DNA of 64,000 bases, taken from positions 18,901-82,900 of the forward strand of contig CAVZCC010000001.1 in NCBI GenBank assembly GCA_963773765.1, in the 5' to 3' direction. The notes beneath the pieces are model-generated. The model saw only the letters and a list, made by a program, of their open reading frames with translations, was not told the origin of the DNA and did not search any database. The stretch is from an uncultured Actinomycetota bacterium. Its GTDB lineage: Bacteria; Actinomycetota; Acidimicrobiia; Acidimicrobiales; Microtrichaceae. The position numbers and the translations under genes were made by a program. The first letter of the stretch is position 1, and each line of letters starts with the position of its first letter. This document shows, in pieces, positions 481-58,776 of this stretch.

Positions 481-490
481 CGTGGTCATG

Positions 491-9509: not shown

Positions 9510-9614
9510 CGGTGGTCCCTCGACGTGGCGCATCCGAGCGCTGGGCAGGCACAAGTTAGGCCGCCCGTCCGCCGGGGTGGTTGCGTAGCGGACGAATGAC
9601 GCCGTCCCTACGAT

Positions 9615-11491
<1,877 letters not shown>

Positions 11492-12160: not shown

Positions 12161-12187
12161 CTCGTGCGTACCCGTCCTGACCCTGCG

Positions 12188-12588: not shown

Positions 12589-14124
12589 TCAGCTCATGGC
12601 GGCGATGGGCTGCTTGGGCGGGAAGCGGCCGAAGGTGGAGAAGTGGTCCCGGATCCCGCTCGTGAAGCTGTCGATGTAGGCGAGCTTGCGGATCATGTAG
12701 CTGTGCTGCTCCTTGGGGTCGAGGTACAGGTTGTACAGCCGCCCGTGGGAGTACTTCTGCGTCACCCCGGTGAACCCGCCCAGGTTCAGGCAGTCGCGGT
12801 CGTCGTCGGAGGTCGAGGCGACCATGAACTTCCACTCGCCCACCCGCAACGCGGAGAACACGTTCGTGAGCCAGTAGTAGAGGTACTTGCGGTTCGACTC
12901 GCCGTCGGGGTCCAGCAGGAACGACGTCTGGTCGACGCCGTCGATGTAGCGGTCCTCGGGGATGGACCCCGCCGCGCCGGCCAGCGTTGAGGATCGTGTT
13001 GAACAGGTCCATCTGGGAGAACAGCCCGTCCGAGGCCCGGTCCGCGGTGATCATCCCGGGCCAGGTGAGGATGCCGGGCACGCGTTGGCCCCCTTCCCAG
13101 GTGGACCCCTTGGCGCTGCGGAACGGGGAGTAGGCGGCGTCGGGCCAGGTCTCCATCTCCGGTCCGTTGTCCGACGACAGGAAGACCAGGGTGTCGTCCA
13201 TCTGGCCGGTCGCCTCCAGCTCGGCCACCAGGCGCCCGACGATGTCGTCGAGCTCGATGATGGTGTCCTTGTAGGGATGCTTGGCGGGCGACGTCCCGAG
13301 GTAGCGCTCGTGCGGGTAGTTGTCGAAGTGCGCACCGCGGGTGCAGTGGTAGAGCAGCCAGGGCCGGCGGTCGGCCGGCGCCGGCGCGGCCATCCGGCGG
13401 ATGAAGTCCAGGGAGTACTCCGCCCAGCGGTCGTCCAGGAGTGACAGCACCGGGATGGTGACCTCCTCGACCTGTTCGGTCTCCCCGCCCCGGGTGGCGT
13501 GCACGAAGCACTTGTTGAACGGGAGGTTCTCCACCCACCGGGTCCGTTCCTCGCTGTAGACGATCTCCGGGAAGAAGTACGGGTCCCGCCACTCGGTGTA
13601 CATGTCCGACACCGACAGGAACCCGTAGAAGTCGTCGAAGCCGACGTGCTGGGGCTGGGACTCGACGTTCTCGCCCGATGTGCCACTTGCCCACGGCCTG
13701 GGTGATGTAGCCGGCGGCGGAGAGCAGCTGGGCCAGGGTGACCTCACCGTCCAGGCCGCCCGGCTGGCCGTACATGGGGGGACGGAGCAGCCCGTGGCGC
13801 ATGGGGAGGCGACCGGTCATCAGCGACGCCCGTGACGGCGTGCAGGAGGGCTCCGAGTAGCACGACGTGAGCAGGAGGCCGCGCCGGGCCAGCCGGTCGA
13901 TGTTGGGCGTCGGGGCGCCGACCGCGACGCCGCCGCCGTAGCAGCCGAAGTCCCCCCACCCCACGTCGTCGAAGAGGATGATCAGCACGTTGGGCCGCTT
14001 CCCGCCGGCGCCGTAGGCGTCCAGGGCAGCAGCGGCCCGCTCCTCCTGGCCGGCCAGGACGAAGTGCGGTTCCAGGCTCCGCCGGGCCTGGACCGTCTCC
14101 GCCACCACTGGATCATGTGCCATG
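12589..14124 (-). pseudogene. arylsulfatase (formylglycine-type, CxPxR); 2 frame changes (near 13680 and near 12870)
   Basis: MAHDPVV...[19 protein letters not shown]...[19 protein letters not shown]...AVGKWHIG (ORF 12786-14975 frame), then [19 protein letters not shown]...[10 protein letters not shown]...[13 protein letters not shown] (ORF 12188-13747 frame), then C-terminus ...VGEWKFMV... (ORF 12589-12861). Confidence 0.65.
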
Positions 14125-15078: not shown

Positions 15079-16552
15079 TCAGGCCGTCGCCGGCGGGGCG
15101 GGCCGGCGACGTCGCATCCGGTAGCGCCACGCCGGGAAGACCCTGGTCCGCAGCCAGTAGCGGGCGCCGCTGTCGGGCAGCTGGGTGACCACCTTGCCCG
15201 ACGGGGCCCGGAAGTAGTTGTTGCACCCGGCCACCCAGACCGTGTCGGCCAGGTCCGCCTGGAGACGCCGGTTGTAGCGGTCCATCACCCCCCGGCGCAC
15301 GTCGACCGCGCCGATCCCGAGTCGGTGCATGGCCCGCAGGGCGCCCATCACGAAGTGGGCCTGGGCCTCGTGGAAGAAGATGATCGAGTTCACGCCGTTG
15401 GTGTTGGGGCCGTAGAGGAGGAACAGGTTCGGGTACCCCGCCACACTCAGCCCCAGGTAGGCCTCGGCGCCGTCGGCCCAGTCGTCGTGCAGGCGGCGGC
15501 CGCCCTCGCCGATGACCTCGATGGTGCTGAGGTACTCGTCGGCCCGGAACCCGGTGCCGTAGATGATCGTGTCCACCTCGTGGAGCTCGCCGTCGGCGGT
15601 GCGCACCCCGGTCCCGGTGATCTCCGTGATCGGTGCGGTGACCAGGCGCACGTCGGGCCGGGTCAGGGTGGGCAGCCAGGTGCGGGAGGTGAGCGGCCGC
15701 TTGCACCCCACCGGGTGCTCCGGCGTGAGCGCGGCACGCAGGTCCGGGTCCGCCACCTTCCGCTCCAGGTAGGAGCGGGCCAGCCCGGTCAACATCCGGG
15801 TCTGGTCGGAGTCGAGCCCGAAGTCGGCCCGCTGGAACGTGAGCCAGATCTGGAAACGGTGCCAACGCGCCGCCAGGGGCACCCGGTCGAACCGGCGTTG
15901 CTGCTCCCGGGTGTAGGGCTGCTCGAAGCGCGGGGTGACCCACACCGGGCTGCGCTGGAACACCGTCAGGTGCTCCACCTCGTCCGCGATGGCGGGCACG
16001 TACTGGATGGCGCTCGCTCCGGTGCCGATGGAGGCGACCCGCTCACCCGCCAGCGCCTTGGTGTGGTCCCAGCGCGGCGGAATGGAACGCCCGGCCCCGG
16101 AAGCGGTCGGCTCCGGGGATGTCGGGGATGTTCGGCACGTTGAGCATCCCGAGGCCACTGACCACCACGTCGGCGGTGAACCGGTCGCCGGATGCCGCGG
16201 TCAGGTGCCAGAGCTGGTTCCCACCGTCCCACCGGGCCTCGGTGATGGCGGTGCCGGTGCGGACGTGTGGTCGGACGCCGTACTGGTCCGTGCATCGCTC
16301 CAGGTAGGCCAGGATCTCGGGCTGGGAGGCGTAGGTCCGGCTCCACCACGGGTTGAGCTCGAAGGAGTACGAGTAGAGGTGCGACGGGACGTCGCAGGCG
16401 GCGCCGGGGTAGGTGTTGTCCCGCCAGGTGCCCCCCACGCCGTCGGACTTCTCGTAGATCGTGAAGTCGTAGCCGGCCCGCTTGAGCCGGATGCCCATGG
16501 CGATGCCGCCGGCGCCGGCGCCCAGGACCGCCACGGTGGGCCGGTGGCTCAC
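15079..16552 (-). CDS. flavin-containing monooxygenase (FMO, class B); one frameshift near 16075
   Basis: GTG start [23 protein letters not shown]...[25 protein letters not shown]...GRAFHSA (ORF 16043-17074 frame), then [24 protein letters not shown]... (ORF 15079-16158 frame). Junction reads ttccattccgccgcgctgggac; deleting one base restores FHSARWDH. Confidence 0.65.
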
Positions 16553-17004
16553 GCGCGCCCCATGCGCTCGAGGTTGGCCGCGGCCCCGGTGTCCACCAGT
16601 TCCACCACCACGCCGTCGGGGTCCACCACGGTGCACATGTCGATGCCGTGGACCTCGATCCGTCGGGGCTCGCCCCCCAGGCCGAGCCCGGCCAGCCGCT
16701 GCAGCGCGGCGCCGACGTCGGTCATGACGGACAGGAGCAGGATGCCCGGCCCGGGCGCGGGACCGTCGGCAGGGCCGGCCGGGACCGGTCCGAGGTCGAC
16801 CAGTTCCACGATGCCGGCATCGGGCAGGTCGGCGCGGCCCAGGAACACCGCCCGCAGCGAGGTGGACGGGGCCCGGAGGAGGGTGGGCCAGTCGCCGGAG
16901 AACCGCTGGTCCAGGAGGACCTCGAAGCCCAGGCCGTCGCGCCAGAACCGGAGGCTGGCCTCCATGTCGCGGACGCAGATGGCCGAGTGGTGTACGACTG
17001 GCAC
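16549..17004 (-). CDS. VOC/glyoxalase-family protein, intact
   Basis: MPVVHHSAICVRDMEASLRFWRDGLGFEV...; its TGA overlaps the GTG of the downstream FMO (GTGA). Confidence 0.65.
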   Translation of the reverse strand: MPVVHHSAICVRDMEASLRFWRDGLGFEVLLDQRFSGDWPTLLRAPSTSLRAVFLGRADLPDAGIVELVDLGPVPAGPADGPAPGPGILLLSVMTDVGAALQRLAGLGLGGEPRRIEVHGIDMCTVVDPDGVVVELVDTGAAANLERMGRA

Positions 17005-17098
17005 GGTCCCCCTCTCCGCCGGCCCGGATCGCCGGCCGGCCGTGGGCCTCCCCCGGCCGTCCGTTGTAGCCCACCGGCAGTGCCCGGGGCGGGTTTCC

Positions 17099-18327
17099 TC
17101 AGACCTCGTCCGGCACCCCGTACGCCGTCTGGTAGCGGCTGAAGCGTGCCCGTTCCGCCACCGGGTCCAGGCCGGTGTCGGCCAGGGCGTACCGGTGGGT
17201 GCCGCGGGCGTCCTTGGGCCGGGCGGCCACGTAGTCCGTCACCGCGGCCCGCAGCTGTGGGGGAACGTCGATGCCGAGGCGATCGTGGATGCGGCCGACG
17301 GTGCCCGCCGGATCCTCCATGAGGTCGGAGTAGCGGACGTCGACGAACCGCTCGTCGGGGAGCGCGCCGGATGCCCGGGCGTCCATGGTGTCGTCCAGCA
17401 TCATGGCGTAGCCCAACGAGACCCAGGGCACCAGGGAGTCCACGTCCACGGTCCCGCAGCGCATGGACCGGAGCGTGCCCATCAGGCTGATGGTGGACGG
17501 CACGCTCTTGAGGGGGTCGCGGTGGATCTGGACCACCCGGGCGTCGGGGTAGACCGCGAACAGCGTGCGGAGCTGTCCCAGGTGGCTGGGGGCCTTGAGG
17601 ACCCAGCGCCGGGCCGGGCGCCGGCGCTGGAGCGTCTGCAGCACCTTGCGGTGGTACCGGTAGGCCTCGGTCTGGTCCGTGCCGACCAGGTGGGCGGAGT
17701 AGGAGGGGACCTCGAAGGTGCCGCCCCACTGGTCGGAGAGGAACTCGAGCATGGTGGCGAAGATGCATTCGTTGGGCTCGTCGCCGTGGTTGTGGTGCAT
17801 CGACTCGTAGGCGGGCTGGAGGTCGGCCCAGAAGGCGTGGACCTGGTGGCCCAGCCGCCGCGCCGTGTCGGGGTCCGTGAGCGCCTCGCCGGGGTGGAGC
17901 AGCTCCCAGGTGGCCGGCGTCCGCGCGGTCGGATCGAGCGACAGGAGCTCGTGCAGGATCGAGGTGCCGGAGCGGCCGGTGCCCACCACGAACACCGGCT
18001 CGGCGATCTCCTCGTCCAGGATGGACGGGTCGGCGTCCCACAGCGCGGCCAGGAGCAGGCGCTGGCGCAGCGCCCGGACGAGCTCGGTCCGGGCCACGAT
18101 GCGGCCGGCCAGCGTGAGGTCGGCCTCGGTGCGCAGCGCGCTGACCAGCACGTCGAAGTGCGGCCGCCAGGTGTCCCCGCCGAAGTCGGCCAGGCCGGTG
18201 GAGCGGCGTGCCGCGTCGAGCAGGTCCTCGGGCTCGAGCGAGACCAGGTACCCGGCACCGCCCACGGCCTCGCCGTGGGCGTTCAGGCGCTCGACCCAGT
18301 CGGGCGGGGTGGGCGGGGTCCAGGGCA
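17099..18327 (-). CDS. sulfotransferase family protein, intact
   Basis: MPWTPPTPPDW...PVFVVGTGRSGTSILHELLSLDP (PAPS 5-prime-phosphosulfate-binding type motif); rest of ORF 17099-18607 upstream of this Met looks non-coding. Confidence 0.65.
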
Positions 18328-18341
18328 TGCCGGGCCTCCGT

Positions 18342-19535
18342 TCAGCTCCAGCGCCGCTGCGCGGCGCGTGACCGGTCGGCGAGCTGGCGGCGGCGCGCCT
18401 CCGGCGTGATGGCCGGGTGGTCATGGGGGAGCCGGGCCCGCAGGTCCGGGACCGGGACCATCGTCGCCGTGGGCTGGGGCCTGGTGGCGGCCCCCACGTA
18501 GCGGTACACGGCCATGCCGATGGGTCGGCCCTCGGTGTCCAGCCAGTTGGGGACGCCCGGGTCGACATGGGAGATGACGATGCGCACCCGGCCGTCGCCG
18601 TCCACATGGGCCTGCCGGCCGTTGCAGCTCATGAGGCGCTGGTCCCAGTCCCCGGAGTCGAACCAGTGCAGGTTGTGGATCGACCAGTTCCAGTACCGGG
18701 CGTCCGGTTCGTCGTGCTCGACCAGCAGTGCCTGGCCCTCCGGTAGGTCCCAGCACCCGCCGCCGTAGGCGATGCTCGGGGCGCCGCCGGGCGGGGTGGT
18801 CGGAGGGGTGAACGTGTTGTGGGCCAGCAGGTCCCGGGTGGCGGCCACGTAGGCGGCCCAGAAGTCGATGGACCGGTCCACCCACCGCCCGGCCCGGTCC
18901 AGCGCCCCGGCGACGCCGTCGGGCGTGGGCGGCGCCGCGGGCTCGCCCGAGGTGTCGGTGCGCTCGATGCTGAACGACACCACCGGTTCCCGGTCCCAGT
19001 CGTACAGGTACTGGCGGATGAGCAGCATCCTGACCCCGGCGGCGGACCGCAGGTGGTTCCCGGGCCGGTCACCGGGGCCGATGGACAGCTCGAGGGTGCC
19101 GTCGCCGTCCACGGCCAGGTCGCTCAGGGCCACCTCTGCGTACACGTCGTTCTGGTCCAGGTGCATGTCGCCCTGGACCAGGGAGAACAGGGCCTCGTGC
19201 GCGCCGTGGACCCGACCCCGCAGCACGTAGGTGGCGTCGGGGTCGATGGCGCAGCGTTGGTACACGTTGTCCGGGTTGGGTGCGCCCCACTGCGACCACG
19301 GAAGTTCGTAGCGGTGCAGGCGCGGGTGGAGGGGGTCCGCGTGCTCCAGTTCACCCTGCAACGCCAGGCCGGCCTGCCGGGCCAGGTGGCGGATCCCCTC
19401 GGCCCGGCCCCGGTCGTCGGTGGGGAAGTGGTCCTCGGTGAGGCGGGTCGACAACCCCTCCAGGGTGGCGGTCCAGCGGGCCCAGGCCTCGCCGGCGGGA
19501 TCAGCGCCTGAACCGGGGGTGGGTGCCGATGGCAT
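18342..19535 (-). CDS. DUF1214/DUF1254-type protein, intact
   Basis: 397-aa ORF; ...RYWNWSIHNLHWFDSGDWDQRLMSCNGRQAHVDGDGRVRIVISHVDPGVPNWLDTEG... typical of that family (from memory). Confidence 0.5.
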   Translation of the reverse strand: MPSAPTPGSGADPAGEAWARWTATLEGLSTRLTEDHFPTDDRGRAEGIRHLARQAGLALQGELEHADPLHPRLHRYELPWSQWGAPNPDNVYQRCAIDPDATYVLRGRVHGAHEALFSLVQGDMHLDQNDVYAEVALSDLAVDGDGTLELSIGPGDRPGNHLRSAAGVRMLLIRQYLYDWDREPVVSFSIERTDTSGEPAAPPTPDGVAGALDRAGRWVDRSIDFWAAYVAATRDLLAHNTFTPPTTPPGGAPSIAYGGGCWDLPEGQALLVEHDEPDARYWNWSIHNLHWFDSGDWDQRLMSCNGRQAHVDGDGRVRIVISHVDPGVPNWLDTEGRPIGMAVYRYVGAATRPQPTATMVPVPDLRARLPHDHPAITPEARRRQLADRSRAAQRRWS

Positions 19536-23308: not shown

Positions 23309-23707
23309 TCAGGTGGTGCTGACGATGAGCACCGAGCAGCCGGCCTTGTGCGAGATGGTGTTGGTGACGCTGCCCAACACCCGGCCCTTGCCCTTCATCC
23401 CCTTGTTGCCGACCACGATCAGGTCGGCGTCGACCGAGTCGGCCACACCGAGGATGGCGTCGGCGGCGTCGCCGGGGACGGCGTGGCGGTGCAGCACACC
23501 GCCGAAGCCCGCGCCGAGGGAGGCCAGGAACTCCTCGGCCTCCCGCGTGGCCGGCTGCGTCTCCGGGTGCGCCCGGTCCCGGTAGGGGTCGAACGCCAGC
23601 ACCAGGTGCACCTCGGCGCCGACGGTGCCCGCCAGCTCCATGGCCTGGTCGATGGCGATCCGGGCCGCCTCGGTGCCGGCTGCGCCGACCACGATCCTGT
23701 CGTACAT
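23309..23707 (-). CDS. universal stress protein (UspA family)
   Basis: MYDRIVVGAAGTEAARIAIDQA...LIVVGNKGMKGKGRVLGSVTNTISHKAGCSVLIV. Confidence 0.75.
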   Translation of the reverse strand: MYDRIVVGAAGTEAARIAIDQAMELAGTVGAEVHLVLAFDPYRDRAHPETQPATREAEEFLASLGAGFGGVLHRHAVPGDAADAILGVADSVDADLIVVGNKGMKGKGRVLGSVTNTISHKAGCSVLIVSTT

Positions 23708-23789
23708 GCAACGCCTCCTGCTCGGGGCCGAGGCTAGACCCGGTCCGGCGTGTGCGACCGCACCGTCGGGCCCGGCGCCCCGGGCGGGC

Positions 23790-26058
23790 TCAGGCCGGGG
23801 CCACCTCCACCGGGATCCCGTTGACGGCGGCGTTGTTGCTGAGCGGGTCGATGGCCAGCGGATCGGCCAACTCGTTGTTGTTCACCCCGGCGTGCTCACG
23901 GGCCACGGACAACCTGGTGCCGTCCTTGGTGTGGCCCCATCCGTGGGGCAGGGAGACGACGCCCGGCATCATCTCGTCGCTCACCTCGACCGGGACCTCG
24001 ACCGAGCCGTGTGACGAGGTCACCCGGGCGACGCCGCGGTCCGCCACTCCGCACCGGGCGGCGTCGTGGGGATGGATCAGCAGGGTGCAGCGGTCCTTGC
24101 CCTTCACCAGAACGGCCACGTTGTGCATCCAGGAGTTGTTGGAGCGCAGGTGGCGCCGGGAGGTGAGCAGCAGCGAGTCGACCGGCCGGTCCAGGCGGGC
24201 GGCGAGCCGGGGGAGGTCGGACACGATGTAGTCGGGGGCCAGGTCGACCCGGCCGTCAGGGGTCCGCAGCACCTCCGCCAGACGGGGCACCATCGGGCCC
24301 ATGTCGATGCCGTGGGGTTCGTCCTTGAAGTGCTGCAGGGTCAGGCCCCCGGGATGCTCGCCGTAGTGGTCACCGAACTCGCCGGTGCGGATCTGCAGGT
24401 CCAGCATCCGCTCCGGACCTCGTTCGGTGTACAGGGGCATGACGGTGGCGGGGTCCACGCCCTTGGCCTCGCACAGCGCGCTCGAAGTAGCCGTCGTCCA
24501 GGTCGTCCACGTCGATCTCGTCGTAGCCCATGCCCAGCAGCATCGCCCCCAGGATGGCCAGCACCCGCCACTCGCCGGGGTGCCCGGCCGGTGGGTCCAT
24601 CACGGCGGGGGAGTAGTTGCCGACGGAGCGCACCGCCCAGCCCAGGATCAGGTCGTCGAAGTGGGGCTGCTCCAACGCGGCCAGACCGGGCAGGAGGACG
24701 TGGGCGTGGCGCGTGGTCTCGTTGAGGTAGTTGTCCACGCTGATCATGCAGTCGAGGGTGGCGAGCGCCTGGTCCAGGCGGGTGGGGTTGGTGCTGGAGA
24801 TGACGGGGTTGCCGGCGATGGTCACCAGCGCCTTCCAGGCCCGGTCGCCGCCGTCCAGGATCTCCTCGGCCAGGAGCCCCACCGGCAGCTGTCCCAGGAC
24901 CTCCGGCACGTCGCCCACCCGGGAGCGCCAACGGCCGAAGCTGACCCCGTCCGCCCACTGGGGGTCGTCCAGGCTGCTCACACCCCAGGCCACGGGCTTG
25001 GCCAGCATCAGGCCGCCCGGACGGTCGAAGTTGCCGGTGAGCACGTTGATGACGTCGACCAACCACGAGGCCAGCGTGCCGAACTCCTGGTTGCAGGTGC
25101 CGATGCGGCCGTAGAGCGCCGCCGTCGGGGCGCCGGCCAGCTCGTGGGCCAGGCGGCGGATGGTCCCGGCCGGCACTCCGCACGTGGCCGCGACACGCTC
25201 GGGGGACCAGTCGGCCACGAGGTCCCCGATGGTGTCCACGTGGTCCACCAGGGGATGGACGGACCCGGGGTCCACCAGGCCGTCGGCGAAGAGCACGTGG
25301 GCCATCGCCATCAGCAGGGCGGCGTCGGTGCCGGGCACGATGGGGACCCACTCGTCGGCCCGTTCCGCCGTTCCCGTCCGACGGGGGTCGATGACGACGA
25401 CCTTGCCGCCGCGCTCCCGGATGGCGTCCATCTTGGCCAGCACGTCGGCGCAGGCCAGGAGCGACCCGCCCGAGGCCTGTGGGTTGCCACCCATGATCAC
25501 CAGGTGGTCGGTCCGCTCCAGGTCCGGGGTCGGGATGGTCCACATGTTGCCGTAGAGCAGCATGGACGAGACGTTCTTGGGCCACTGGTCGATGGTGCCC
25601 GCGCTGTACAGGCACTCCAGCTGGGCCAGGCCGACGAACAGGCCGACGTAGCGGCTGAGCGAGAAGGCGTGGGCGACGGGGTTGCCGATGTAGGACGTGA
25701 TGGCCGAGCGACCGTGGCGCTCCGCCACGCCGGCGATCAGCTCGTCGCAGCGCCGGAACGCCTCCTCCCAGCTCACCTCCCGCCACTCGTCGCCGTCCCG
25801 CACCATGGGGACGCGGATGCGGTCGGGGTCCTGGTGGAGGTGCCCGAGCGTGGTCCCCTTGGGGCAGATGAAGCCCTGGCTCCAGACATCGTCCCGGTCG
25901 GCGCGGATGAGCTTGACCTCCCGGTCCTCGACATGGACCTCCAGGCCGCACATGGCCTCACACAACGGGCAGGTCCGGAGGTGGACGGTGCGGTCGCCGG
26001 TGACGGTCCGGTCGTTCGGGGCGGGGCGCTGGTTCATGGCGGGGCGCTGGTTCATGGC
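23790..26058 (-). CDS. molybdopterin oxidoreductase family protein (N-terminal CxxCxxxC 4Fe-4S motif); one frameshift near 24465; start codon region carries an 18-bp tandem duplication
   Basis: MNQRPAMNQRPAPND...LRTCPLCEAMCGLEVHV...DDGYFE (ORF 24370-26409 frame), then EAKGVDPATVMPLYTERGPERMLDLQIR... molybdopterin-binding C-terminal domain (ORF 23790-24458 frame). Confidence 0.65.
26023..26058. repeat. perfect 18-bp tandem duplication (ggggcgctggttcatggc x2) duplicating the ATG and first six codons (MNQRPA) of the molybdopterin oxidoreductase
   Basis: Seen directly in sequence. Confidence 0.9.
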
Positions 26059-30988: not shown

Positions 30989-33013
30989 ATGGATCCCCTG
31001 AGTGTCCTCGTCGTCGTGGTGGTCGTGGCGTTCCTGGTGGTGATCCTGGGCCTGCGCAGCTTCCACTCCATCGGCCCCTCCGAGGTCGGACTGGTGGGCA
31101 AGCGGATCGGCAGGCGCATCGGCGACGACCAGTTGGTCGCGCTCAACGGCGAGGCCGGCTACCAGGCCGACCTGCTCATGCCCGGCCTGCGGTTCAAGCT
31201 GTGGCCGCTGTTCAAGGTGGAGCGCTTCCCGTGGGTCCAGGTCCCACCGGACCACATCGGCATCGTCATCGCCCAGGTGGGCGACGCGGTGCCGACCGGC
31301 GCCAAGTCCGCGGTCTACAAGCCGGAGTTCGACAGCTTCGCCGACACCCGGGCCTTCCTCGCCAACGGGGGACAGCGGGGCGTGCAGCGTCCGGTGCTCC
31401 CTCCCGGCACCATCGCGCCGATCCACCCCATCGGCTTCGTGGTCATCACCAGTGACGAGGTGTTCGGCAAGCCCGTGTCCGACTCCACCCTCACCGCGGC
31501 CCAACAGGTGGAGGCCGCCGCGCTGCGGGTCACCCACATCACCCCCCAGGGCGACCGCGACGTGGTGGGCGTCGTCACCACGCTGGAGGGGCCGCCGTCG
31601 GGAGACATCGCCAGCCGGATCGGCGGGTTCTCCGACGTGACGGCCATGGAGCAGTCCGGCGCCGGCTCCGCGGTGCAGATCATCCAGGCCGTGCTGCGGT
31701 CCAAGAACGACCTGCACGACAACTACCAGGACTACCAGCGGTTCCTGGAGAGCGGCGGCTGCATCGGCCTGCAGCACGACCCGCTGCTCTATGGCTCCTA
31801 CCTGCTCAACCCGTTCCTGGTGAAGGTGGAGCTGCGCGAGATGCTGGTGGTCCGCCAGGGCGAGGTGGCGGTCATCAAGTCCTACGTCGGGCTCCCCACC
31901 GAGGACACCTCGGGGGAGGAGTTCAAGTTCGGCTCCATCGTGAAGCCGGGCCACCAGGGCATCTGGTCCGAGCCGCTGCGGACGGGCAAGTACACGCTGA
32001 ACCCCCGCATCTACGAGGCCGAGATCGTCCCCACGTCGATCCTGACCCTCAACTGGTCCCACGCCACCTCCGATGCCCACAGCCTGGACGAGCGCCTGGC
32101 CCCCATCGAGGCCAAGTCCAAGGAGGCGTTCGCGTTCAGCATCGACCTCCAGGTCCAGATCCACGTGCCCGACACCCGCGCCCCCAAGGTGATCTCCATG
32201 GTGGGCACCATGCAGAACCTGGTGAACGAGGTGCTGCAGTCGGCGGTGGGGAACTACTTCCGCAACAAGCTCCAGACCCTGGGCGCGACCGAGTTCATCG
32301 AGAAGCGCGACGAGGTCCAGAACGCGGCCGAGGGCTACATCCAGCAGTACCTGTCCCGTTACGAGGTGGAGACCCGGGGCGTGTACATCCAGGACGTGAT
32401 CTTCCCGGCCGACCTGGTGGAGGTCCTCACCAGCCGTGAGATCGCGGCACAGGAGCGGGCCACGTTCGCCCAGCAACGAGCCGCCCAGGAGGCCCGGGTG
32501 AGTCTGGAGCAGCAGCGCGGCGTGGCCGACATGCAGGCCCAGCTGGCCCAGGCCAACGTGTCGGTGGACATCGAGAAGTCACGGGCCCAGGCCGCCAGCG
32601 CCCGGGCCGACGGCGAGGCCGCGGTGATCACGGTGACCGGCGCGGCGGAGGCCACACGGACCCGGGACATCGGCAATGCCAACGCGTCGGCCGAGGAGGC
32701 ACTGGGCCTGGCCCGGGCCAAGGGATTCGACGCGCAGCGCCGCGCCATCGGATCGGAGCAGACCGCCATGGTGGCCGCGCTGCGGGAGGTGGCATCGGGC
32801 CACGTCAAGATCGTCCCCGACATCCAGGTCGGGGGCGACAGCGGTGTGCTCGGTGGCCTCGGCGCGCTGCTCATGCGCTCCCTGGCCGAGGGCAGCGGCG
32901 AACCTGCCGACGGCCTGCCCGCGGGCGGCGACGGCGACGTGGCACCGGAACCGGAACCGGAACCGGAACCGGAACCGGAACCGGAACCGGAACCGGAGAC
33001 CGGACCGAGCTGA
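30989..33013 (+). CDS. flotillin/SPFH (band 7) family protein with C-terminal (PE)8 acidic tail
   Basis: N-terminal TM helix (LVVVVVVAFLVVILGL), SPFH region, Ala/Gln/Glu-rich coiled-coil flotillin C-terminus, ends APEPEPEPEPEPEPEPEPETGPS. Confidence 0.75.
   Translation: MDPLSVLVVVVVVAFLVVILGLRSFHSIGPSEVGLVGKRIGRRIGDDQLVALNGEAGYQADLLMPGLRFKLWPLFKVERFPWVQVPPDHIGIVIAQVGDAVPTGAKSAVYKPEFDSFADTRAFLANGGQRGVQRPVLPPGTIAPIHPIGFVVITSDEVFGKPVSDSTLTAAQQVEAAALRVTHITPQGDRDVVGVVTTLEGPPSGDIASRIGGFSDVTAMEQSGAGSAVQIIQAVLRSKNDLHDNYQDYQRFLESGGCIGLQHDPLLYGSYLLNPFLVKVELREMLVVRQGEVAVIKSYVGLPTEDTSGEEFKFGSIVKPGHQGIWSEPLRTGKYTLNPRIYEAEIVPTSILTLNWSHATSDAHSLDERLAPIEAKSKEAFAFSIDLQVQIHVPDTRAPKVISMVGTMQNLVNEVLQSAVGNYFRNKLQTLGATEFIEKRDEVQNAAEGYIQQYLSRYEVETRGVYIQDVIFPADLVEVLTSREIAAQERATFAQQRAAQEARVSLEQQRGVADMQAQLAQANVSVDIEKSRAQAASARADGEAAVITVTGAAEATRTRDIGNANASAEEALGLARAKGFDAQRRAIGSEQTAMVAALREVASGHVKIVPDIQVGGDSGVLGGLGALLMRSLAEGSGEPADGLPAGGDGDVAPEPEPEPEPEPEPEPEPETGPS
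32945..32998. repeat. (CCGGAA)8 plus CCGGAG hexanucleotide microsatellite encoding (PE)n tail of flotillin
   Basis: Perfect hexamer array seen directly in sequence. Confidence 0.95.
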
Positions 33014-40833: not shown

Positions 40834-42255
40834 TCAGGGATCCACGTGCTCCAGGCGGAGCGTGGTGTCCACCAGCAGGCGGAACCGGCCCCGGCCGGCC
40901 TTCTGCAGGCGGATGGGGGCTTCGCGCTCGTCGAGCCGGCGCCGGAGCAGGATCAGGCGGCTCTCCAGGTTGTCCCGGTACTCGGGGAGCTCCAGGGACG
41001 GGTCGAGCCGGACCTCCCTGTTGGTGAAGTCCACCCGGCCCTCCGCGTCGAACTGGCAGAGGAGGGACCAGAGGATCCGTCCGGCGACGCCCTTGATCAG
41101 GTAGTCGCCGTCCAGGAACGTGCTGCCGTCGGCGGGGAAGAAGCGGACCTGCGTCACCGATCCGGGAGCGGCCAGCGAGAGCGGCCGGGCGGGCGACGCG
41201 GCCTCTCGGGGCAGCGGCGCGGCCTCGCTCGGCCTCCACGGCGGCCCCGACGAGCGCAGCCACCACCCCCAGCGTCGTTTCGTCACGGTGACTGAACGCC
41301 ACCGGCCGGTCGCGTTCTGCGAACAACACCCCGACCACCTGCCCGAACGCGACCGCCGGCACCGCCACCTGGCTCCCGGCATCGGCCAGGCCCGGCAGGG
41401 CGATCACGCCGGTGACCTCCACGCCGGCATCGGCGGACCGGCGCTGCACGGTGCGGGAGTACTTGTCCATCTGGCGGATGTTGCCGACCCGCACGACGGT
41501 GCCCCGCTCCGCGGCCAGGCCGATCACCCCCATCCCCACCTCGACCTCGGACCCGATCCCCCCGTCCGGGTAGCCGTGGGCCGCCACGGTGTACAGGCTG
41601 GTGCCGGACTCGTCGGCGAGGAGCAGCAGGCTGTGCTCGTAGCCGAGGAGCTCCGCCAGCCCGTCGACGGCCAGCCCCACGAGTTGGTCCAGGTCGGCGC
41701 TCCGGGCCAGTCGGCCCGCCAGCTCGGCCACGGCGGCGACGCGGTCGGTGCCCGGGCGGTCGGTGCCCGGGCGGACGGCGCCGGGGGGGACGTCGGCGCC
41801 AGCGGTACCGGGCGGGTTCGCGGCGGCGCCACCACCCACCACACGTTCCAGGGACACGACGCGGTAGATGTCGGCGGCGCGCAGCCGGAAGACGTCCTCC
41901 ATACCGGACAACGCGGCCAGGGTGTCCACGTCGGTCCTCAGGCGCTCGAAGACCGGGCCGCGTCGTTCCGTGCGCTCGTAGGCCAGGGCCAGCCGGTACT
42001 CGTCGTAGGTGACGGGGTCGATCAGGAGCAGGTTGGCCCGCGGGTTCTCCGCCAGGTTCCGGGCGGTCTTGGAGAAGAACTGGTTGGACAGCGCCACCCG
42101 GTGGTCGTCCACCATGCGCACGCGCGACAGGTAGGTGACGTTGGGCGTCCCCCCGGCGGAGGACGTGGCGACCACCGCCGGCACCGCCCCCTCGAAGCAC
42201 TGGTGGATGTCCGCCAGCCGGAGGCCCGAGGGGTCCGGCCCGTCGTCGGTCACGC
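40834..42255 (-). CDS. one-component regulator: PNPOx-like (FMN/F420 split-barrel) domain + GAF domain + OmpR/SARP-type winged-helix DNA-binding domain; frame change near 41190; GTG start
   Basis: From GTG at about 42255: LRLADIHQCFEGAVPAVVATSSAGGTPNVTYLSRVRMVDDHRVALSNQFF (PNPOx-like), ...LLLADESGTSLYTVAAHGYPDGGIGSEVEVGMGVIGLAAERGTVVRVGNIRQ (GAF-like) (ORF 40787-42625 frame), then FFPADGSTFLDGDYLIKGVAGRILWSLLCQFDAEGRVDFTNREVRLD...SRLILLRRRLDE...IRLQKAGRGRFRLLV (trans_reg_C-like) in ORF 40834-41382 frame. Confidence 0.5.
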
Positions 42256-42618
42256 CGAGCCTCCGTCCGGCCCCACCGGCGCACCCGCTCCCGGGCCCGG
42301 CGTCTGGTCGAAGAGCTCCTCCATCTGGACCGTCACGGCCGTGAGGCCGGCCGGCACCAGCTTCTCCAGGAGGTCCACGGGGAACCCGTCGACCTCGTGG
42401 ATGGCGTCGAACATGGCCCGGCGGTAGCGGCCGGACACCCTGGCGTCCTCCGCCGTGGCCGGCTCCGTCCGGAGCACCCGGCCCTTGGCCTGCACCGACT
42501 GCAGGGTCCTGATGTCGGTCGCCGTGCAGGCGATGGGAGCTCCCGGCAGCACGGCACCGTCCAGGACGGGGTCCCCGGCGGGGACCAGGAGGCGGATGCG
42601 CCCGTCGTCGGAGGACAT
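42250..42618 (-). CDS. small PNPOx-like (pyridoxamine 5-prime-phosphate oxidase family) protein
   Basis: MSSDDGRIRLLVPAGDPVLDGAVLPGAPIACTATDIRTLQSVQAKGRVLRTEPATAEDARVSGRY...; its TGA overlaps the GTG of the downstream regulator (GTGA). Confidence 0.55.
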   Translation of the reverse strand: MSSDDGRIRLLVPAGDPVLDGAVLPGAPIACTATDIRTLQSVQAKGRVLRTEPATAEDARVSGRYRRAMFDAIHEVDGFPVDLLEKLVPAGLTAVTVQMEELFDQTPGPGAGAPVGPDGGSA

Positions 42619-42874: not shown

Positions 42875-43636
42875 ATGACCGACATCACGCTCCCCGCCGA
42901 AGCCTCCGACGTCGCCCCCGACGTCGCCGCACTGACCATCACCGGGATGCGCTCCCGGCCGGAGTTCGGCCTGGTCGCGGTGGACCTGTACCGGGACATC
43001 CACAAGGGCATCCGGGCCGAGCTGTTCTCCGTGACCGGTGAGAGCGGCTCGGTCGACCCCGGCGACCGGCTGGGACGGGCGGCCCTGGCCGCCCACGTCC
43101 GGGACGTCGTCGGACTCCTGGCCGACCACGCCGACCACGAGGACGCCCACATCCAGCCCGTCCTCGAACGCCACCTGCCCGAGCTGGCCGGGACCATCGG
43201 GACCGACCACGCCCGCCTGGAGGAACGGACCGGTTCGTTGGTGGAGGTCGCAGGACTGGTGGAGGCGGCCCGGCCTGCCGACCAGCGGGCGCTGGTGCAC
43301 CACCTGTACCGGGAGCTGGCCTCGTTCACCGGCGACTACCTGCGCCACCAGGACGTGGAGGAACGCGTGGTCATGCCCGCGCTGGAGTCCGCCGTCGGGG
43401 TGGAGGCCGTGCTGGGGATCCACCAGGCCATCGTCGGCTCGATCCCGCCGGAGCAGATGGCCGCCTCGCTCGCGGTCATGCTGCCGGCCATGAACCTGGA
43501 GGACCGGACCGACCTGTTGGGCGGCATGCAGGCCGGTGCACCGCCCGAGGTCTTCGCCGGGGTGTGGGGGCTGGCGGGCTCCGTGCTGGACCCGGCCGAC
43601 CTCCGGGCGCTCGGTCGCCGCCTGGGCCTGGACTGA
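42875..43636 (+). CDS. hemerythrin-like metal-binding domain protein
   Basis: MTDITLP...DLYRDIHKGIRAELF...DHEDAHIQPVLERHLPEL...; the preceding part of ORF 42455-43636 looks non-coding. Confidence 0.5.
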   Translation: MTDITLPAEASDVAPDVAALTITGMRSRPEFGLVAVDLYRDIHKGIRAELFSVTGESGSVDPGDRLGRAALAAHVRDVVGLLADHADHEDAHIQPVLERHLPELAGTIGTDHARLEERTGSLVEVAGLVEAARPADQRALVHHLYRELASFTGDYLRHQDVEERVVMPALESAVGVEAVLGIHQAIVGSIPPEQMAASLAVMLPAMNLEDRTDLLGGMQAGAPPEVFAGVWGLAGSVLDPADLRALGRRLGLD

Positions 43637-43733
43637 GGGCCCCGGGGGTGCGCCCGGGCCCGGGGCGGGGCACGGGTGCACCCGGCACGCGCCGCTACGG
43701 TGGCCACAGGACCGACCGGGGGTGCAGGCGACC

Positions 43734-45686
43734 GTGAGCGAGGCCAGCGGACAGGCGGGCGTGGAGCCCATCACGGATGACGACGCGACGATCGCGGCCG
43801 CCCTGGCGGACGTGAGCATCCCGACGCTCCTCCTGTCGTTGGTCCACATGACCGGTGACATCGCCATCCTGGACGAGCTGCCGCGGCCGGCGGGGATCTA
43901 CCTCAACGAGGTGCAGGGCTTCATGTCCCCGGAGGACCAGGCCGCCGTGCGGGCCCGGGCGCTGGAGGTCATCACCGCCTACCGCGACGGCGGCTGCGTG
44001 CTCCCGCCCCCGCCCGACGCCGGACGACGGTCCACCGCGATGATGAACGTGCTGGTGGCCGACGAGGTCCCCGACGAGTACGTGCCGCTGCTCCTCGAGG
44101 AGCTGGAGCTCGACGGCGTGGACGCCCGGGACGGCGACTGGGGCGCCGCCATCCCCGACGACGTGCGGGCCGGCGCCCACGTGGTGGTCATCGGCGGCGG
44201 GATGTCCGGGATCCTGGCCGGCATCCGCCTGCAGGCCGCGGGTCTCCCGTTCACCATCGTCGAGAAGAACCCGGGCGTGGGCGGCACCTGGTACGAGAAC
44301 CGCTACCCCGGCTGCCGGGTGGACGTGGGCAACCACTTCTACTGCTACTCGTTCGCGCCCAACGACGAGTGGACCGAGTTCTTCGCCCGCCAGCCCGAGC
44401 TGCAGGCCTACTTCGAACAGGTGCGTCACCGACTTCGGCGTCGGCGACCACCTCCGGTGCTCGCACGGAGGTCGTCGCCGCCCGCTGGGACGACGACCGT
44501 GCCCGTTGGACGGTGACCGTCCGCGGCGCCGACGGCGTCCAGCGAGGACCTGGAGGCCAACGCGGTCATCAGCGCGGTGGGCCAGCTGAACCGGCCCAGG
44601 CTGCCCGACATCGCCGGCCTGGAGGACTTCGGTGGCCCGGTCATGCACTCGGCCCGGTGGGTGGAGGGCACGGACCTGCGCGGGCAAGCGGGTGGCGGTG
44701 ATCGGCACCGGCGCCAGCGCCTTCCAGATCGTGCCCACCATCGCGGAGCGAGGTCGGCCACCTGACGGTGTTCCAGCGGTCCGCGCCGTGGATGTTCCCC
44801 AACCCGCACTACCACGACAAGGTGGCACCGGGCGTGCGCTGGGCGCTTCGCCACCTGCCGTACTACGGCCGGTGGTACCGGTTCCTGATCTTCTGGCCGG
44901 CGTGCGACGGCGGGCTGCCGGCCATGCGGGTCGACCCCGACTGGCCCCACCAGGACCGGGCCGTCAGCGAGGTGAACGACGCGGCCGCGGGAGGTCTTCA
45001 CCCAGTGGATGGCCGACCAGGTCGGCGACGACGCCGAGCTCCTGGCCAAGGTGGTGCCCGACTACGTGTGCCTGGGCAAGCGCACCCTGCAGGACAACGG
45101 CAGCTGGCTGGGTGCCCTCACCCGCGACGACGTGGACCTCGTCACCGAACCGATCGAACGCATCGGGTCCGACCGGATCGTGTGCACCGACGGGACCGAG
45201 GTCCCGGTGGACGTGATCATCTGCGCCACCGGGTTCCACGCCAACCGCTACCTGTGGCCGATGGAGATCACCGGCCGGGGAGGCGTGGTGCTGTCCGAGC
45301 AGTGGGGCGACCGGCCCACGGCGCTGCTGGGGATCACGGTGCCGAACTTCCCCAACCTGTTCTGCCTCTACGGGCCGGGGACCAACCTGGCCAGCGGGGG
45401 CAGCCTGATCTTCCACTCCGAGTGCCAGGTCCGGTACGTGATGGGGTGCCTGGCCCGCGTGCTCGGGGGCGGGCACCGCGCCATCGAGGTCACCGCCGAG
45501 GCGCACGACGCCTACAACGAGCGCCTGCAGGCCGAGTTGGCCACCATGGTGTGGTCGCACCCGTCCATCCGGAACAGCTGGTACCGCAACGACGACGGGG
45601 ACATCTACATCCTGTCGCCGTGGCGCCTGGTGGACTACTGGCGCTGGACCCGGGCGCCGGAGCCGGACGACTTCATCCTCACGTGA
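43734..45686 (+). pseudogene. class B flavin monooxygenase paralog 3 (FMO/BVMO-like with N-terminal extension), 5 or more frame changes
   Basis: GTG-start VSEASGQAG...HVVVIGGGMSGILAGIRL...GGTWYENRYPGCRVDVGNHFYCYSF...YFEQV (43536 frame); TEVVAARWDDDRARWTVTVRGADG (44369 frame); GQLNRPRLPDIAGLEDFGGPVMHSARW (44577 frame); GKRVAVIGTGASAFQIVPTIAER (44632 frame); FQRSAPWMFPNPHYHDKVAPGVRW (44768 frame); ADQVGDDAELLAKVVPDYVCLGKR...NFPNLFCLYGPGTN (45009 frame). Confidence 0.6.
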
Positions 45687-45696
45687 GCCGGCCCGG

Positions 45697-46959
45697 GTGA
45701 GCGCACCCCGACTCCCTCCCGGCCTGCCGGTCCCGTCCGGGCACAACCTGGCGGTTCGGATCACCAAGGACGCGGCCCGCCAGGTGCGCGCCGGTCACCC
45801 GTGGCTGTTCGACGCCTCGATCACGTCGCTCCGGTCGCCGGCCGCGGCGACGACCGCTCCGGCGGCCGGCGACCTGGCCGTGGTGTTCGGCGACGACCGC
45901 CGGTTCCTGGCCGTGGGGCTGTACGACCCCGCGTCGCCCATCCGTGTCCGCGTGCTGCACCACGGCGCCCCCCTCGCCGTGGACCGGGCCTTCTGGGCCG
46001 CGCGGCTGGCGGAGGCCTGGGACCGGCGGGGCGACCTGACCCGGTCGCCGGAGACCACGGCCTGGCGGTGGGTCCACGGCGAGAACGACCGGATGCCGGG
46101 CCTGGTGATCGACCGCTACGGATCCACCTCGGTCATCAAGCTGTACACGTCGGCGTGGATCCCGCACCTGGCCGGGGTGCTGGACGTGATGGCCGAACGG
46201 CTGGGCCCGGACACGGTGGTGCTCCGCCTCGGGCGCAACGTTGCCGCCGGGCCGACCTTCGGGCTGTCCGACGGCGCGACCATCCAGGGGCCGGTCCCGC
46301 CCGGACCGGTGCCGTTCCGGGAGCACGGCCTGCACTTCGTGGCCGACGTGGTCCACGGCCAGAAGACGGGGCACTTCCTGGACCAACGGGACAACCGGGC
46401 CCGGGTGGGCGAACGGGCCGCGGGGCGTTCCGTCCTGGACGTGTTCTGCTGCACGGGTGGGTTCAGCGTCCACGCCGCCGCCGGCGGGGCACAGGAGGTC
46501 CACGGGGTGGACCTCAGCCGCCACGCCGTGGAGGCGGCCGGGGCCAACATGGCCCGCAACCGCGACCGGCCCCCCGTGCGCGACTGCCGGTACCGGAGCA
46601 CGGTCGGCGACGCCTTCGAGGTCATGGCCCGGCTCGCGGCGGCGGGGGAGCGCTACGGGATGGTGGTGGTGGACCCGCCGTCGTTCGCGTCCAGGCAGTC
46701 CGACGTGGGGGCCGGGCTGCGGGCCTACGGTCGCCTCACCGACCTGGCCCTGGCCCTGCTCCGTCCCGGCGGCACCCTGGTCCAGGCCTCGTGCTCGGCC
46801 CGCATCTCCGCCGAGGCCTTCTTCGCCCAGATCCACGGGCGGGCCGGACGGGCCGGCGTCCGCCTGGCCGACGAGGTCCGGACCGGGCACGCCGTGGACC
46901 ACCCCGTCGGCTTCGCCCAGGGTGCCTACCTGAAGGCCCTGTTCGCCACCGTCGCCTGA
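45697..46959 (+). CDS. class I SAM-dependent rRNA methyltransferase, RlmI/RlmK-like, intact
   Basis: 420-aa ORF; ...VLDVFCCTGGFSVHAA...VVDPPSFA... methyltransferase motifs with N-terminal PUA-like region. Confidence 0.65.
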   Translation: MSAPRLPPGLPVPSGHNLAVRITKDAARQVRAGHPWLFDASITSLRSPAAATTAPAAGDLAVVFGDDRRFLAVGLYDPASPIRVRVLHHGAPLAVDRAFWAARLAEAWDRRGDLTRSPETTAWRWVHGENDRMPGLVIDRYGSTSVIKLYTSAWIPHLAGVLDVMAERLGPDTVVLRLGRNVAAGPTFGLSDGATIQGPVPPGPVPFREHGLHFVADVVHGQKTGHFLDQRDNRARVGERAAGRSVLDVFCCTGGFSVHAAAGGAQEVHGVDLSRHAVEAAGANMARNRDRPPVRDCRYRSTVGDAFEVMARLAAAGERYGMVVVDPPSFASRQSDVGAGLRAYGRLTDLALALLRPGGTLVQASCSARISAEAFFAQIHGRAGRAGVRLADEVRTGHAVDHPVGFAQGAYLKALFATVA

Positions 46960-53175: not shown

Positions 53176-53199
53176 ACCGCGGACCCGACGGGGCGGTGG

Positions 53200-53748
53200 C
53201 TAGAGCTTGGTGACGGCGTCGCCGCGACGGATCACGCCGGGGGCGATCACCCGGGCGTTGAGCCCCCGGAGCCGGAGCTCCTTGCCGGCCGGGGAGTTGA
53301 CGAACCGCACGGCGTCCTCCCCGAACCGCTCGCGGAACTTGGCGCACCCGTTGTGGGGGCGCTCGGTCACCTCGATCACGGCGCTGCCGACCGACAGGCG
53401 CGTGCCGGCCGGGAGGTTCCCCGTCCCCAGGTCCAGGTCGACGTAGAGCTGGTCCCCGGCCAGCGCCCGGTCCTGCGGCGTCGGGGCGAGCAGCGCGACC
53501 ATGCGGGAGCTCATCACGTTGAGCTGCATGAGGGGATGGGCGGAGCCGTCGGGCGTGTGGCGGGAGCCCCGGACGGACCAGGTGTCGCCCACCAGGCCCA
53601 GCTCCAGGTCCAGCTCGCCCTCGTCCAGGACCTCCCGCTCGTCCACCGCCGGTCGGCGGACGATCATGTCCAGCGTCCCGGTGCGACCGGGCGCGGCGCG
53701 CAGGTGGTCCAGGGCTGCTTCCAGGGTGGCGGTGTCGGTGTGGGCCAT
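53200..53748 (-). CDS. MOSC domain-containing protein
   Basis: ...ERPHNGCAKFRERFGEDAVRFVNSPAGKELRLRGLNARVIAPGVIRRGDAV; alternative start at 53766. Confidence 0.6.
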   Translation of the reverse strand: MAHTDTATLEAALDHLRAAPGRTGTLDMIVRRPAVDEREVLDEGELDLELGLVGDTWSVRGSRHTPDGSAHPLMQLNVMSSRMVALLAPTPQDRALAGDQLYVDLDLGTGNLPAGTRLSVGSAVIEVTERPHNGCAKFRERFGEDAVRFVNSPAGKELRLRGLNARVIAPGVIRRGDAVTKL

Positions 53749-53819
53749 GGCTCGAGTGTGGGGCATCCCGGTCCGCCGGTGCCCGTCGATTTCGGGCTCG
53801 GCACCCGGGCGACCCCCGG

Positions 53820-54944
53820 TCAGGCCATGGGGCCGGCCGGGAGCGGCCCGCGGTCGTGGGCGTCGCCGTCGTCCCCGGGGTCGAGGTCGGGGTCGCCCGC
53901 CCCGGCTCCGCCGCCCTCGTCGGCCGACAGCCGGTTGACGGTGGCCAGGCGGGTCCGGCCGATGCCCTTGAGGTCGAACACCCGTCGCACCCGGTGGGTC
54001 TCGAGGTCCGCCCGGTCCTCCATCGCCAGCAGGTACTCCCGGGGGATGACGACCTTGCCCCGACGGGCCACGTCGGTCATGCGGCTGGCCAGGTTGACGG
54101 TCGGGCCGAACACGTCGCCACCCACGGTGATGGTCGGGCCGTACGCCACGCCGCAGTGCAGCTGCACCGGCTCCGGCCGGTCGGCAAGGCGGTCCAGCAG
54201 GTCCAGGCCGATGTCCACCCCGTCCTCCAGGGTGTCGGCCAGGAACATGACCTCGTCGCCGATCAGCTTCACCACGCGGCCACCGCGGGCGGACACGACG
54301 TCGAAGGCCGCCGTCTCGAAGGCGTCGATGACCTCGGCCAGCTCCGGTGGCGTGAGCTCCCGGGTCAGCTTGGAGAAGCCCGAGATGTCGGCGAACCCCA
54401 CCGCGCACTCGGACAGGTCCTCCTCCGCCCCCAACCAGCGGCTGAGCGCGGCCACCAGGTGCCGCCGCCACACGTAGACCAGGGAGTCCTCCAGGAGCGC
54501 CAGCAGCGAGGTGTCCGGGTCGCGCTCCATGGCCTGGATGCGGTCCCACGGTGAGAGGTCCGGCTCGCCGGCCGGCATGGAGAGGAGGATGTCGTCCAGC
54601 ACGGCGGCCTGGGCCTCGGCGATGCGGGAGAAGGACGCACCCAGCAACCGGGCCAGGCGGAGCACGGCGTCGTCGTCCAGCAGGTCCGCCCCCACCATGG
54701 ACACCAGGCGCCGTGCCATCTGCACGTCGGTGTCGCCGAAGGCCACCACGTCCTCCGGGACCTCGGCGAAGCCCATGGCCCGCCACCACCGGACCATCTC
54801 CTCGTGGGTGACCCCGACACGCTCCTCCATGTCCCTGCGGCGGTACACCGGGGGATCCAGGCCCACCATGCGGGACAGACCCGCCACCCGTTCGGGGTCC
54901 ACCGGCCGGCGTGTCTCCCCGGACGGCACCTCGCCGATCGTCAC
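53820..54944 (-). CDS. class III adenylate/guanylate cyclase with N-terminal regulatory domain
   Basis: ...AVGFADISGFSKL...LIGDEVMFL...; GTG start proposed; the upstream part of ORF 53820-56438 is antisense to the GH5 gene. Confidence 0.65.
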   Translation of the reverse strand: MTIGEVPSGETRRPVDPERVAGLSRMVGLDPPVYRRRDMEERVGVTHEEMVRWWRAMGFAEVPEDVVAFGDTDVQMARRLVSMVGADLLDDDAVLRLARLLGASFSRIAEAQAAVLDDILLSMPAGEPDLSPWDRIQAMERDPDTSLLALLEDSLVYVWRRHLVAALSRWLGAEEDLSECAVGFADISGFSKLTRELTPPELAEVIDAFETAAFDVVSARGGRVVKLIGDEVMFLADTLEDGVDIGLDLLDRLADRPEPVQLHCGVAYGPTITVGGDVFGPTVNLASRMTDVARRGKVVIPREYLLAMEDRADLETHRVRRVFDLKGIGRTRLATVNRLSADEGGGAGAGDPDLDPGDDGDAHDRGPLPAGPMA

Positions 54945-54973
54945 GGTCAGGCCCGCCGGACGGTGACCGTGAC
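54940..54973. other. perfect 10-bp inverted repeat gtcacggtca-N14-tgaccgtgac spanning the GH5 stop codon and the cyclase start
   Basis: Seen directly in sequence. Confidence 0.6.
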
Positions 54974-57769: not shown

Positions 57770-57851
57770 TGCAGCGCGTGGGCCGGGGTGGAACGATGGT
57801 TGCGATGCAGATGACCGAGCCGGTCGGCACCCGGACCCCGGACGTGGCGCC

Positions 57852-58776
57852 ATGAGGTGGTGGTGCTCGGCGGTGGCGGAGAAGTGGACGTGGGCCCCGC
57901 GTCCGTACCTGGGCGTGTGGATCCTGTGCCTCGGGCTGGGCGCGGCGTACTGGCGGAGCTGGACCCACCACCGGGACCAGTGGGTCCCGGACGAGCGGGA
58001 CCGCCGCCGCCCGCTGTGGTTCGGGCTCGGCCTCCTGGCGCTCTGGGTCGCCTCCGACTGGCCCGTCGGTGCCCTGGGTGGGTCCTACCTGGCCTCGGTC
58101 CACATGCTGCAGTACATGATCTACACGCTCGCCGCGGCACCGCTGCTCATGCTCGGCACGCCGGAATGGCTCGGTCGACGCATCCTGGCCGCCACCTGGC
58201 TGCGCACCGTCTACCTGGCCATCTCCAAGCCGACTCATCGCCGCCCTCATCAGCAACTTCGTGCTGATCGCCACCCACGCCCCGGTCACGGTGGACCTGT
58301 TGCGCTCCAGCCAGTTGGGGTCGTTCCTCCTGGACATGATCTGGCTGGTGGCCGGCTTCATCCTGTGGACCCCGATCATCAGCCCGCTGCCGGAGGCCCA
58401 GGCCCGCTCCGCGCCGATCAAGCTGGTGTACCTGTTCGCAGCGGCCGCCCTCATGCCCATGATCCCCGGCGGGTTCCTCACCTTCTCGCCGCTGCCCCTG
58501 TACGCCACCTACGAGCTGGCACCCCGGGTCGGCATCGAGGCACTCGACGACCAGCAGATGGCAGGCGTGGCCATGAAGGTCGGCAACCTCCCGGTGATCT
58601 GGACCGTCATGGCGGTGATCTGGTTCCGCTGGTACCGCCGTGAGGCGGGCGACCAGCGGCCCACGGTGGTGCGCGACCCGGTCACCGGCGCGCCGTTGCG
58701 GGCACCACGGGCAGCGCGTCCAGCCCCCGGAACGGACCGCGCTGGTGCCAGCGCAGGGGTTCCGCCGTCCGGCTGA
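57852..58776 (+). CDS. ctaG: cytochrome c oxidase caa3-type assembly factor CtaG-like membrane protein; frameshift near 58235
   Basis: RPYLGVWILCLGLGAAYW...MLQYMIYTLAAAPLLMLGTPEWL...AISKP (57852 frame), then LIAALISNFVLIATHAPV...LWTPIISPLPEAQ... (58261 frame). Confidence 0.5.

Follow-up and report, generated by a model that had tools for sequence, protein, structure and literature searches.

The 64-kb stretch of metagenomic DNA analyzed here (the window, 64,000 nt) has a G+C content of ~72% and a coding GC3 of ~0.95, so that the reading frame is legible straight from base composition. It includes a gene for a Baeyer–Villiger monooxygenase (BVMO) that, as written, is interrupted by repeated changes of frame (Table 1). 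The hemerythrin-like gene upstream and the RlmI-like methyltransferase gene downstream are both intact, as the initial annotation had stated. We traced the frame of the target gene from the open reading frame (ORF) list, a three-frame translation, a sliding GC3 plot and a seven-state Viterbi frame tracker. The tracker remains in f0 from ~43635 to 44416 and is in f0 again from 44981 to the stop codon. Between ~44416 and ~44981, the + strand frame runs f0>f1>f2>f0>f1>f2>f0, a series of six switches that are all +1, and the monooxygenase sequence jumps frames at the switch points in the three-frame translation. The initial annotation had reported five or more switches, near 44410, 44540, 44690, 44760 and 44990; we recovered all five and added a sixth near 44463, as well as a compensating triple of insertions.

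Exact positions came from alignment to the same locus in a sister assembly, L081. This alignment resolves nine single-base insertions in the window, six of which are net frame changes. The remaining three (44018, 44028 and 44039) sum to +3 and compensate for one another, scrambling ~6 codons on the way; the window has DAGRRSTAMM in place of the ...VHRMM of relatives, and removal of the triple brings the family motif VHRMM back. The target gene thus carries nine extra bases in 1.95 kb, whereas the remaining 19.3 kb of the L081 alignment contain no more than five, a degree of clustering beyond chance (P ~1e-5 by our own Poisson estimate from these two counts).

Table 1. Coordinates of the target gene, its extra bases and motifs, its neighbors and the other disrupted genes of the window. 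Residue numbers refer to the repaired protein.
Feature	Position	Strand	Remarks
BVMO-1	7722-9606	-	frame disrupted once (net) near 8960-8995; L168 copy intact (600 aa)
BVMO-2	9607 to ~11468	+	at least 11 frame switches; several insertions with SNP doubling
FMO-4	15114-16553	-	extra C at 16075, private to the window; copies in L167, L168 and L169 intact (490 aa)
Arylsulfatase-like gene	12594-14107	-	three frames; window-private insertions at 12985 and 13677; 505-aa ORF in L168
GAF/PNPOx-like regulator	40841-42263	-	window-private extra A at 41213; intact 467 aa in L081, L082 and L083
RPE65-like fragment	1-492	-	one frame switch near 236; outside sister-locus coverage
CtaG-like membrane protein gene	57848-58698	+	one frame switch near 58234; outside sister-locus coverage
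Molybdopterin oxidoreductase	23707-26056	-	frame switch near 24478; no indel versus L168
Hemerythrin-like gene, upstream	42875..43636	+	intact, 253 aa; clean boundaries
BVMO gene as written (target)	43734..45686	+	1953 nt
N-terminal extension	43734..44174	+	~146 residues; predicted mostly helical; conserved, 46 homologs aligned
Extra C	44018	+	first of triple; absent from L081; B-allele base, present in L082
Extra C	44028	+	second of triple; absent from L081; B-allele base
Extra G	44039	+	third of triple; absent from L081
FAD-binding Rossmann motif GGGMSG (GxGxxG)	44193..44210	+	residues 153-158
Type I BVMO motif GGTWYENRYPGCRVD ([AG]GxWxxxx[FY]P[GM]xxxD)	44280..44324	+	residues 182-196
Extra G	44423	+	f0 to f1; absent from L081
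Extra G	44463	+	f1 to f2; absent from L081; not in the initial annotation
Extra C	44543	+	f2 to f0; absent from L081, L082 and L083
BVMO fingerprint FGGPVMHSARW(V) (FxGxxxHxxxW)	44628..44663	+	residues 297-308
Extra C	44681	+	f0 to f1; window CGCGGGC, allele A CGGGGC, allele B CGCGGC
NADPH-binding Rossmann motif GTGASA (GxGxx[GA])	44704..44721	+	residues 322-327
Extra C	44749	+	f1 to f2; absent from L081
Extra C	44985	+	f2 to f0; absent from L081, L082, L083 and JGI contig L164
RlmI-like methyltransferase gene, downstream	45697..46959	+	intact, 420 aa; clean boundaries

Once the nine extra bases are taken out, the gene measures 1,944 nt and encodes 647 amino acids followed by a stop codon (45684–45686); a GTG at 43725 offers an alternative start. 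Judged by its sequence, the predicted product is a HAPMO-like type I BVMO dependent on FAD and NADPH. Manual joining of the frames gave a 649-residue protein that can be aligned over its full length with intact proteins of 646–660 aa from uncultured Acidimicrobiales, the best homolog showing 79% identity at 100% coverage. The nearest relatives are uncultured Acidimicrobiales proteins with 73–79% identity, and many homologs have been labeled '4-hydroxyacetophenone monooxygenase' by JGI. Pfam recognizes the FMO-like, Pyr_redox_3 and NAD_binding_8 families from residue ~149 on, and the core between residues ~147 and ~595 matches solved type I BVMOs (E = 3e-66 to 1e-58). The closest of these structures by phmmer is STMO (4AOS, E = 3e-66), with CHMO, PAMO and OTEMO next. 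A Foldseek search with a model of the 79%-identical homolog (P0001) retrieved STMO, PAMO and CHMO with a probability of 1.00 and TMt values of 0.70–0.74.

Type I BVMOs are defined by the fingerprint FxGxxxHxxxW[P/D] and by a second motif, [A/G]GxWxxxx[F/Y]P[G/M]xxxD. The repaired protein has two Rossmann motifs and the second motif (GGTWYENRYPGCRVD), in addition to the sequence and fold similarity expected of the class. Its fingerprint, FGGPVMHSARWV at residues 297–308, agrees through the W, but the last position is V instead of the P or D of the motif, which also sets it apart in a comparison with the solved type I BVMOs. We regard the repaired gene as another ordinary member of a well-populated clade of HAPMO-like BVMOs in the Acidimicrobiales. 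HAPMO (4-hydroxyacetophenone monooxygenase) of Pseudomonas fluorescens ACB shares with the target a length of ~640–650 aa and an N-terminal extension that precedes the BVMO core, a likeness of size, extension and homolog names.

This extension distinguishes the target from steroid monooxygenase (STMO, 4AOS), phenylacetone monooxygenase (PAMO, 1W4X) and cyclohexanone monooxygenase (CHMO, 3GWD), which have ~540 aa and lack its 146-residue N-terminal domain. The initial annotation had raised the possibility that the N-terminal ~150 aa match a known domain. The first 146 residues had no match in Pfam, NCBIfam or PDB sequences, and the fold search with the full-length model yielded no known domain for the extension, which is nevertheless conserved among the aligned homologs. 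Fold-search alignments with the full-length P0001 model did not exceed the ~520–540 residues of the BVMO targets, which therefore seem to lack any equivalent of the extension. Block-mean pLDDT values in this model lie between 77 and 97 for residues 11–110, except for residues 51–60 (52). We regard the extension as a conserved domain that is typical of the family and absent from curated domain sets. HAPMO, unlike other type I BVMOs, is reported to possess an N-terminal extension that matters for structural integrity (PMC10028610).

At least three further assemblies of the same species exist (ERZ25039459 contig_8028, the source of L081; ERZ25039596 contig_31748; and ERZ25039545 contig_70283). 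Over 21 kb, L081 is 98.9% identical to window positions 35671–56954, with 193 mismatches and 26 indel events, and it contains none of the nine extra bases. Two other extra bases are private to L081, at window positions 45188 and 45205, sites at which the window shows no break, and the L081 target gene is called as two products of 495 and 159 aa. The JGI contig L164 (987 nt, 98.6% identity) spans window positions 44889–45868, and its sole gap relative to the window falls on the C at 44985; the 253-aa protein that it encodes is continuous across both the window break and the L081 break. An intact reading frame, which the initial annotation had itself set against a real disruption, is thus found in other data. 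All nine sites are covered cleanly in L081 only, and L164 covers one.

Beyond these sequences, scans of public genomes and metagenome contigs with the rebuilt protein as query returned only orthologs from other species (63–78% identity) and no full-length copy from the same species, and a protein collection contained no unbroken full-length match above 90% identity to the target protein. A 141-residue query over five junctions found no near-identical fragments (best match 79% identical). Among Logan contigs with the RlmI gene, those from which DNA was retrieved cover the FMO gene at its 3′ end only.

The other two sister sequences of the locus, L082 and L083, carry a divergent form of the target gene, which we call allele B; the window and L081 represent allele A. 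L082 and L083 share 101 substitutions in the target gene relative to the window and L081, 63% of which fall at codon position 3. This pattern points to a second allele that is truly divergent, and perhaps introgressed, within a population that is otherwise 98–99% identical. Along the alignment, divergence between assemblies is concentrated in the target gene (window 43500–45700), with flanks at ~1%. We rejected L082 and L083 as clean references, given ~44 and ~53 indels, respectively, at the target locus; the private differences of L082 are distributed nearly at random by codon position (39% at position 3). We attribute the noise on this gene in all four assemblies to high allelic divergence, which would be its likely source, and the estimate of that divergence derives from the same noisy assemblies. 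In a MAFFT alignment, L082 has a base at 44018, 44028, 44423, 44681 and 44749, and L083 has one at 44028, 44423 and 44749. We interpret these bases as B-allele sequence or as a recurrence of the artifact; alternatively, they could be real shared variants.

The nine extra bases have a distinctive signature. Every one is an insertion, and each sits outside homopolymers (run lengths of 1–2). At seven of the nine sites as scored by script, or eight as scored by eye, the extra base is the B-allele base beside an A/B difference, against a null rate of 0.10 per site (P = 3e-6). The same doubling occurs at window-private insertions in other genes, namely at 1559, 10018, 10029, 10370, 10758, 11137 and 13677. 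Residual indels that lead to frameshifted gene calls have been documented for long-read consensus sequences (PMC9262707). The target resembles those cases in that single-base indels split its ORF, and in that the indels vary from one assembly of an organism to the next and vanish in another data set. It differs from them in one respect: long-read artifacts are classically homopolymer indels, whereas those in the target lie outside homopolymers at strain-polymorphic sites.

The nine positions, their absence from L081, the clean ORF after repair and the match to allele B are direct results. On this basis, we consider it very likely that the target locus is an intact, selectively maintained BVMO gene and that its multiple frameshift is a consensus artifact in which two alleles were mixed. 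The sampled population would carry two divergent alleles of the gene: A, represented by L081, and B, represented by L082 and L083. Wherever the two disagree, the consensus of the 1.71 Mb metagenomic contig would have kept the A base and inserted the B base as well, an event that we term SNP doubling, and such doubling could account for the nine added bases. The doubling probably arose at the consensus or polishing step. Flye-style contig names and the error pattern point to a long-read assembly as the source, and a mixture of two haplotypes with both bases kept appears to be the simplest reading of the error mechanism.

A real, strain-specific pseudogene would explain the same breaks differently: once inactivated, the copy would have gained the nine insertions while selection on a redundant oxygenase was relaxed, as the initial annotation had proposed among its explanations. 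The breaks do cluster in one gene between two intact neighbors, the presence of four FMO/BVMO genes in the window makes redundancy plausible, and some of the extra bases recur in L082 and L083. The repaired gene nonetheless looks constrained throughout. Its product matches all 236 columns that are invariant in 40 homologs, including 126 of 126 within the frameshift zone, and GC3 is unchanged (0.978 in the frameshift zone and 0.975 outside). Compared with the corrected L081 gene, it has 16.5 synonymous and 12.5 non-synonymous differences, which correspond to a dN/dS of 0.25 (dS 0.035, dN 0.0086). Mismatches versus L081 reach 16 per kb in the target gene and 12–14 per kb in the flanks, with no substitution excess over the flanks.

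Bacterial pseudogene decay is biased towards deletion, an expectation that nine insertions in nine events contradict; nine indels, insertions only, set against ~29 substitutions are unlike neutral decay. The inserted bases, moreover, copy a second allele at polymorphic sites, and different genes are broken in each assembly. Neither of the marks by which we would recognize a pseudogene was found. Independent data from the same lineage lack the disruptions (nine of nine in the 98.9%-identical L081, and 44985 in L164), and relaxed constraint, in the form of a dN/dS near 1, residue loss, codon-bias decay or extra substitutions, is not apparent. Relaxed selection on redundant oxygenases is contradicted by these observations taken together, and we regard a pseudogene as unlikely.

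Less probable still is that the nine insertions are real, reside on one molecule and stem from a natural process that leaves the bases of both alleles behind at polymorphic sites. If true, it would point to an event such as aberrant heteroduplex repair in recombination between co-existing BVMO alleles and to the inactivation of oxygenase genes in a single strain, the population being 99% identical otherwise.

Confusion of paralogous FMO/BVMO genes of the same genome by the assembler or polisher was also put forward in the initial annotation. The part of that proposal that invokes an assembly artifact agrees with our results, and four family members, all with frame breaks, do lie in one 64 kb window. 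The target, however, shares only 31–44% amino acid identity with the other three, and the DNA matches are patchy (~67–78% in stretches of >70 bp and 86% in a single 37-bp stretch), which is too little for such confusion. The bases inserted agree with the orthologous B allele of L082 and L083 and with no paralog; they track a second allele of co-occurring strains, and non-FMO genes are affected likewise. We find a paralogous cause hardly credible.

Generic platform errors, for example at homopolymers or methylation motifs and independent of population structure, are just as hard to sustain as the cause of the nine insertions. Consensus indels are common in long-read data (PMC9262707), three of the insertions share a G[C]GAGG context, and window-private insertions at 9686, 10537, 11165 and 16075 have no polymorphism nearby. 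The nine bases, though, all sit outside homopolymers, and no single motif is common to all sites; seven or eight of them coincide with A/B allele differences, and they occur clustered in blocks rather than spread evenly. Programmed frameshifting was rejected outright, as nine insertions outside slippery runs would be undecodable and a sister assembly lacks them.

The mixing of two alleles, which we favor for the target, bears on the rest of the window, where further genes are disrupted (Table 1). The initial annotation had counted three of the four FMO/BVMO genes as disrupted. Disruption is borne out, but the count is too low, as all four are broken, the fourth by the extra C at 16075. It had also seen the damage as concentrated in this one family; most breaks do fall in FMO/BVMO genes, probably owing to unusually high allelic divergence at these loci, but not exclusively, given that the sulfatase gene and the GAF regulator are hit as well. 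BVMO-2 shows ~30 indel events, mostly 1-nt window insertions, relative to at least two of the three sister assemblies; it is split in all three of these and most nearly whole in L167 (368 + 252 aa). In the sister assemblies, the noisy genes include those for RPE65, a hydrolase, a sulfatase and a sulfotransferase.

At least nine genes in the window look like pseudogenes, and for all of those examined apart from BVMO-2, one or more sister assemblies have an intact copy. Because the breaks examined are private to the window assembly, any inference of decay, redundancy or relaxed selection drawn from this contig would mislead. The signature described here, an extra base at a strain-differing site, outside homopolymers and in blocks of 1–2.5 kb, may help to spot and repair such artifacts in long-read metagenome assemblies.

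The sister assemblies also differ from the window in ways that are separate from the target gene. The window adenylate cyclase gene at 53193–53882 is intact, according to L082 and the frame tracker. L081 positions 17067–19253 (window ~53200–54950) contain private indels at window positions 53193, 53243, 53692 and 53882, and these fuse the MOSC and adenylate cyclase genes of L081 into one 728-aa ORF. With the window intact over ~53200–54950 where L081 is broken, both assemblies carry private frame errors. A 3.6 kb insertion containing genes with Guanylate_cyc and AAA_16 domains lies at positions 10768–13946 of L167, which is on the same contig as L081, between the equivalents of window positions 12187 and 12186; it is absent from the window, L168 and L169. 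At window positions 41741–41755, 15 nt are tandemly duplicated in frame (GCGGTCGGTGCCCGG, a PGTDR repeat in translation); L081 lacks this duplication, which is probably a real length polymorphism in the linker of the GAF regulator. A short hexanucleotide-type repeat, reading (RF)n on the minus strand, occupies window positions 32897–32998 at the edge of a coding region.
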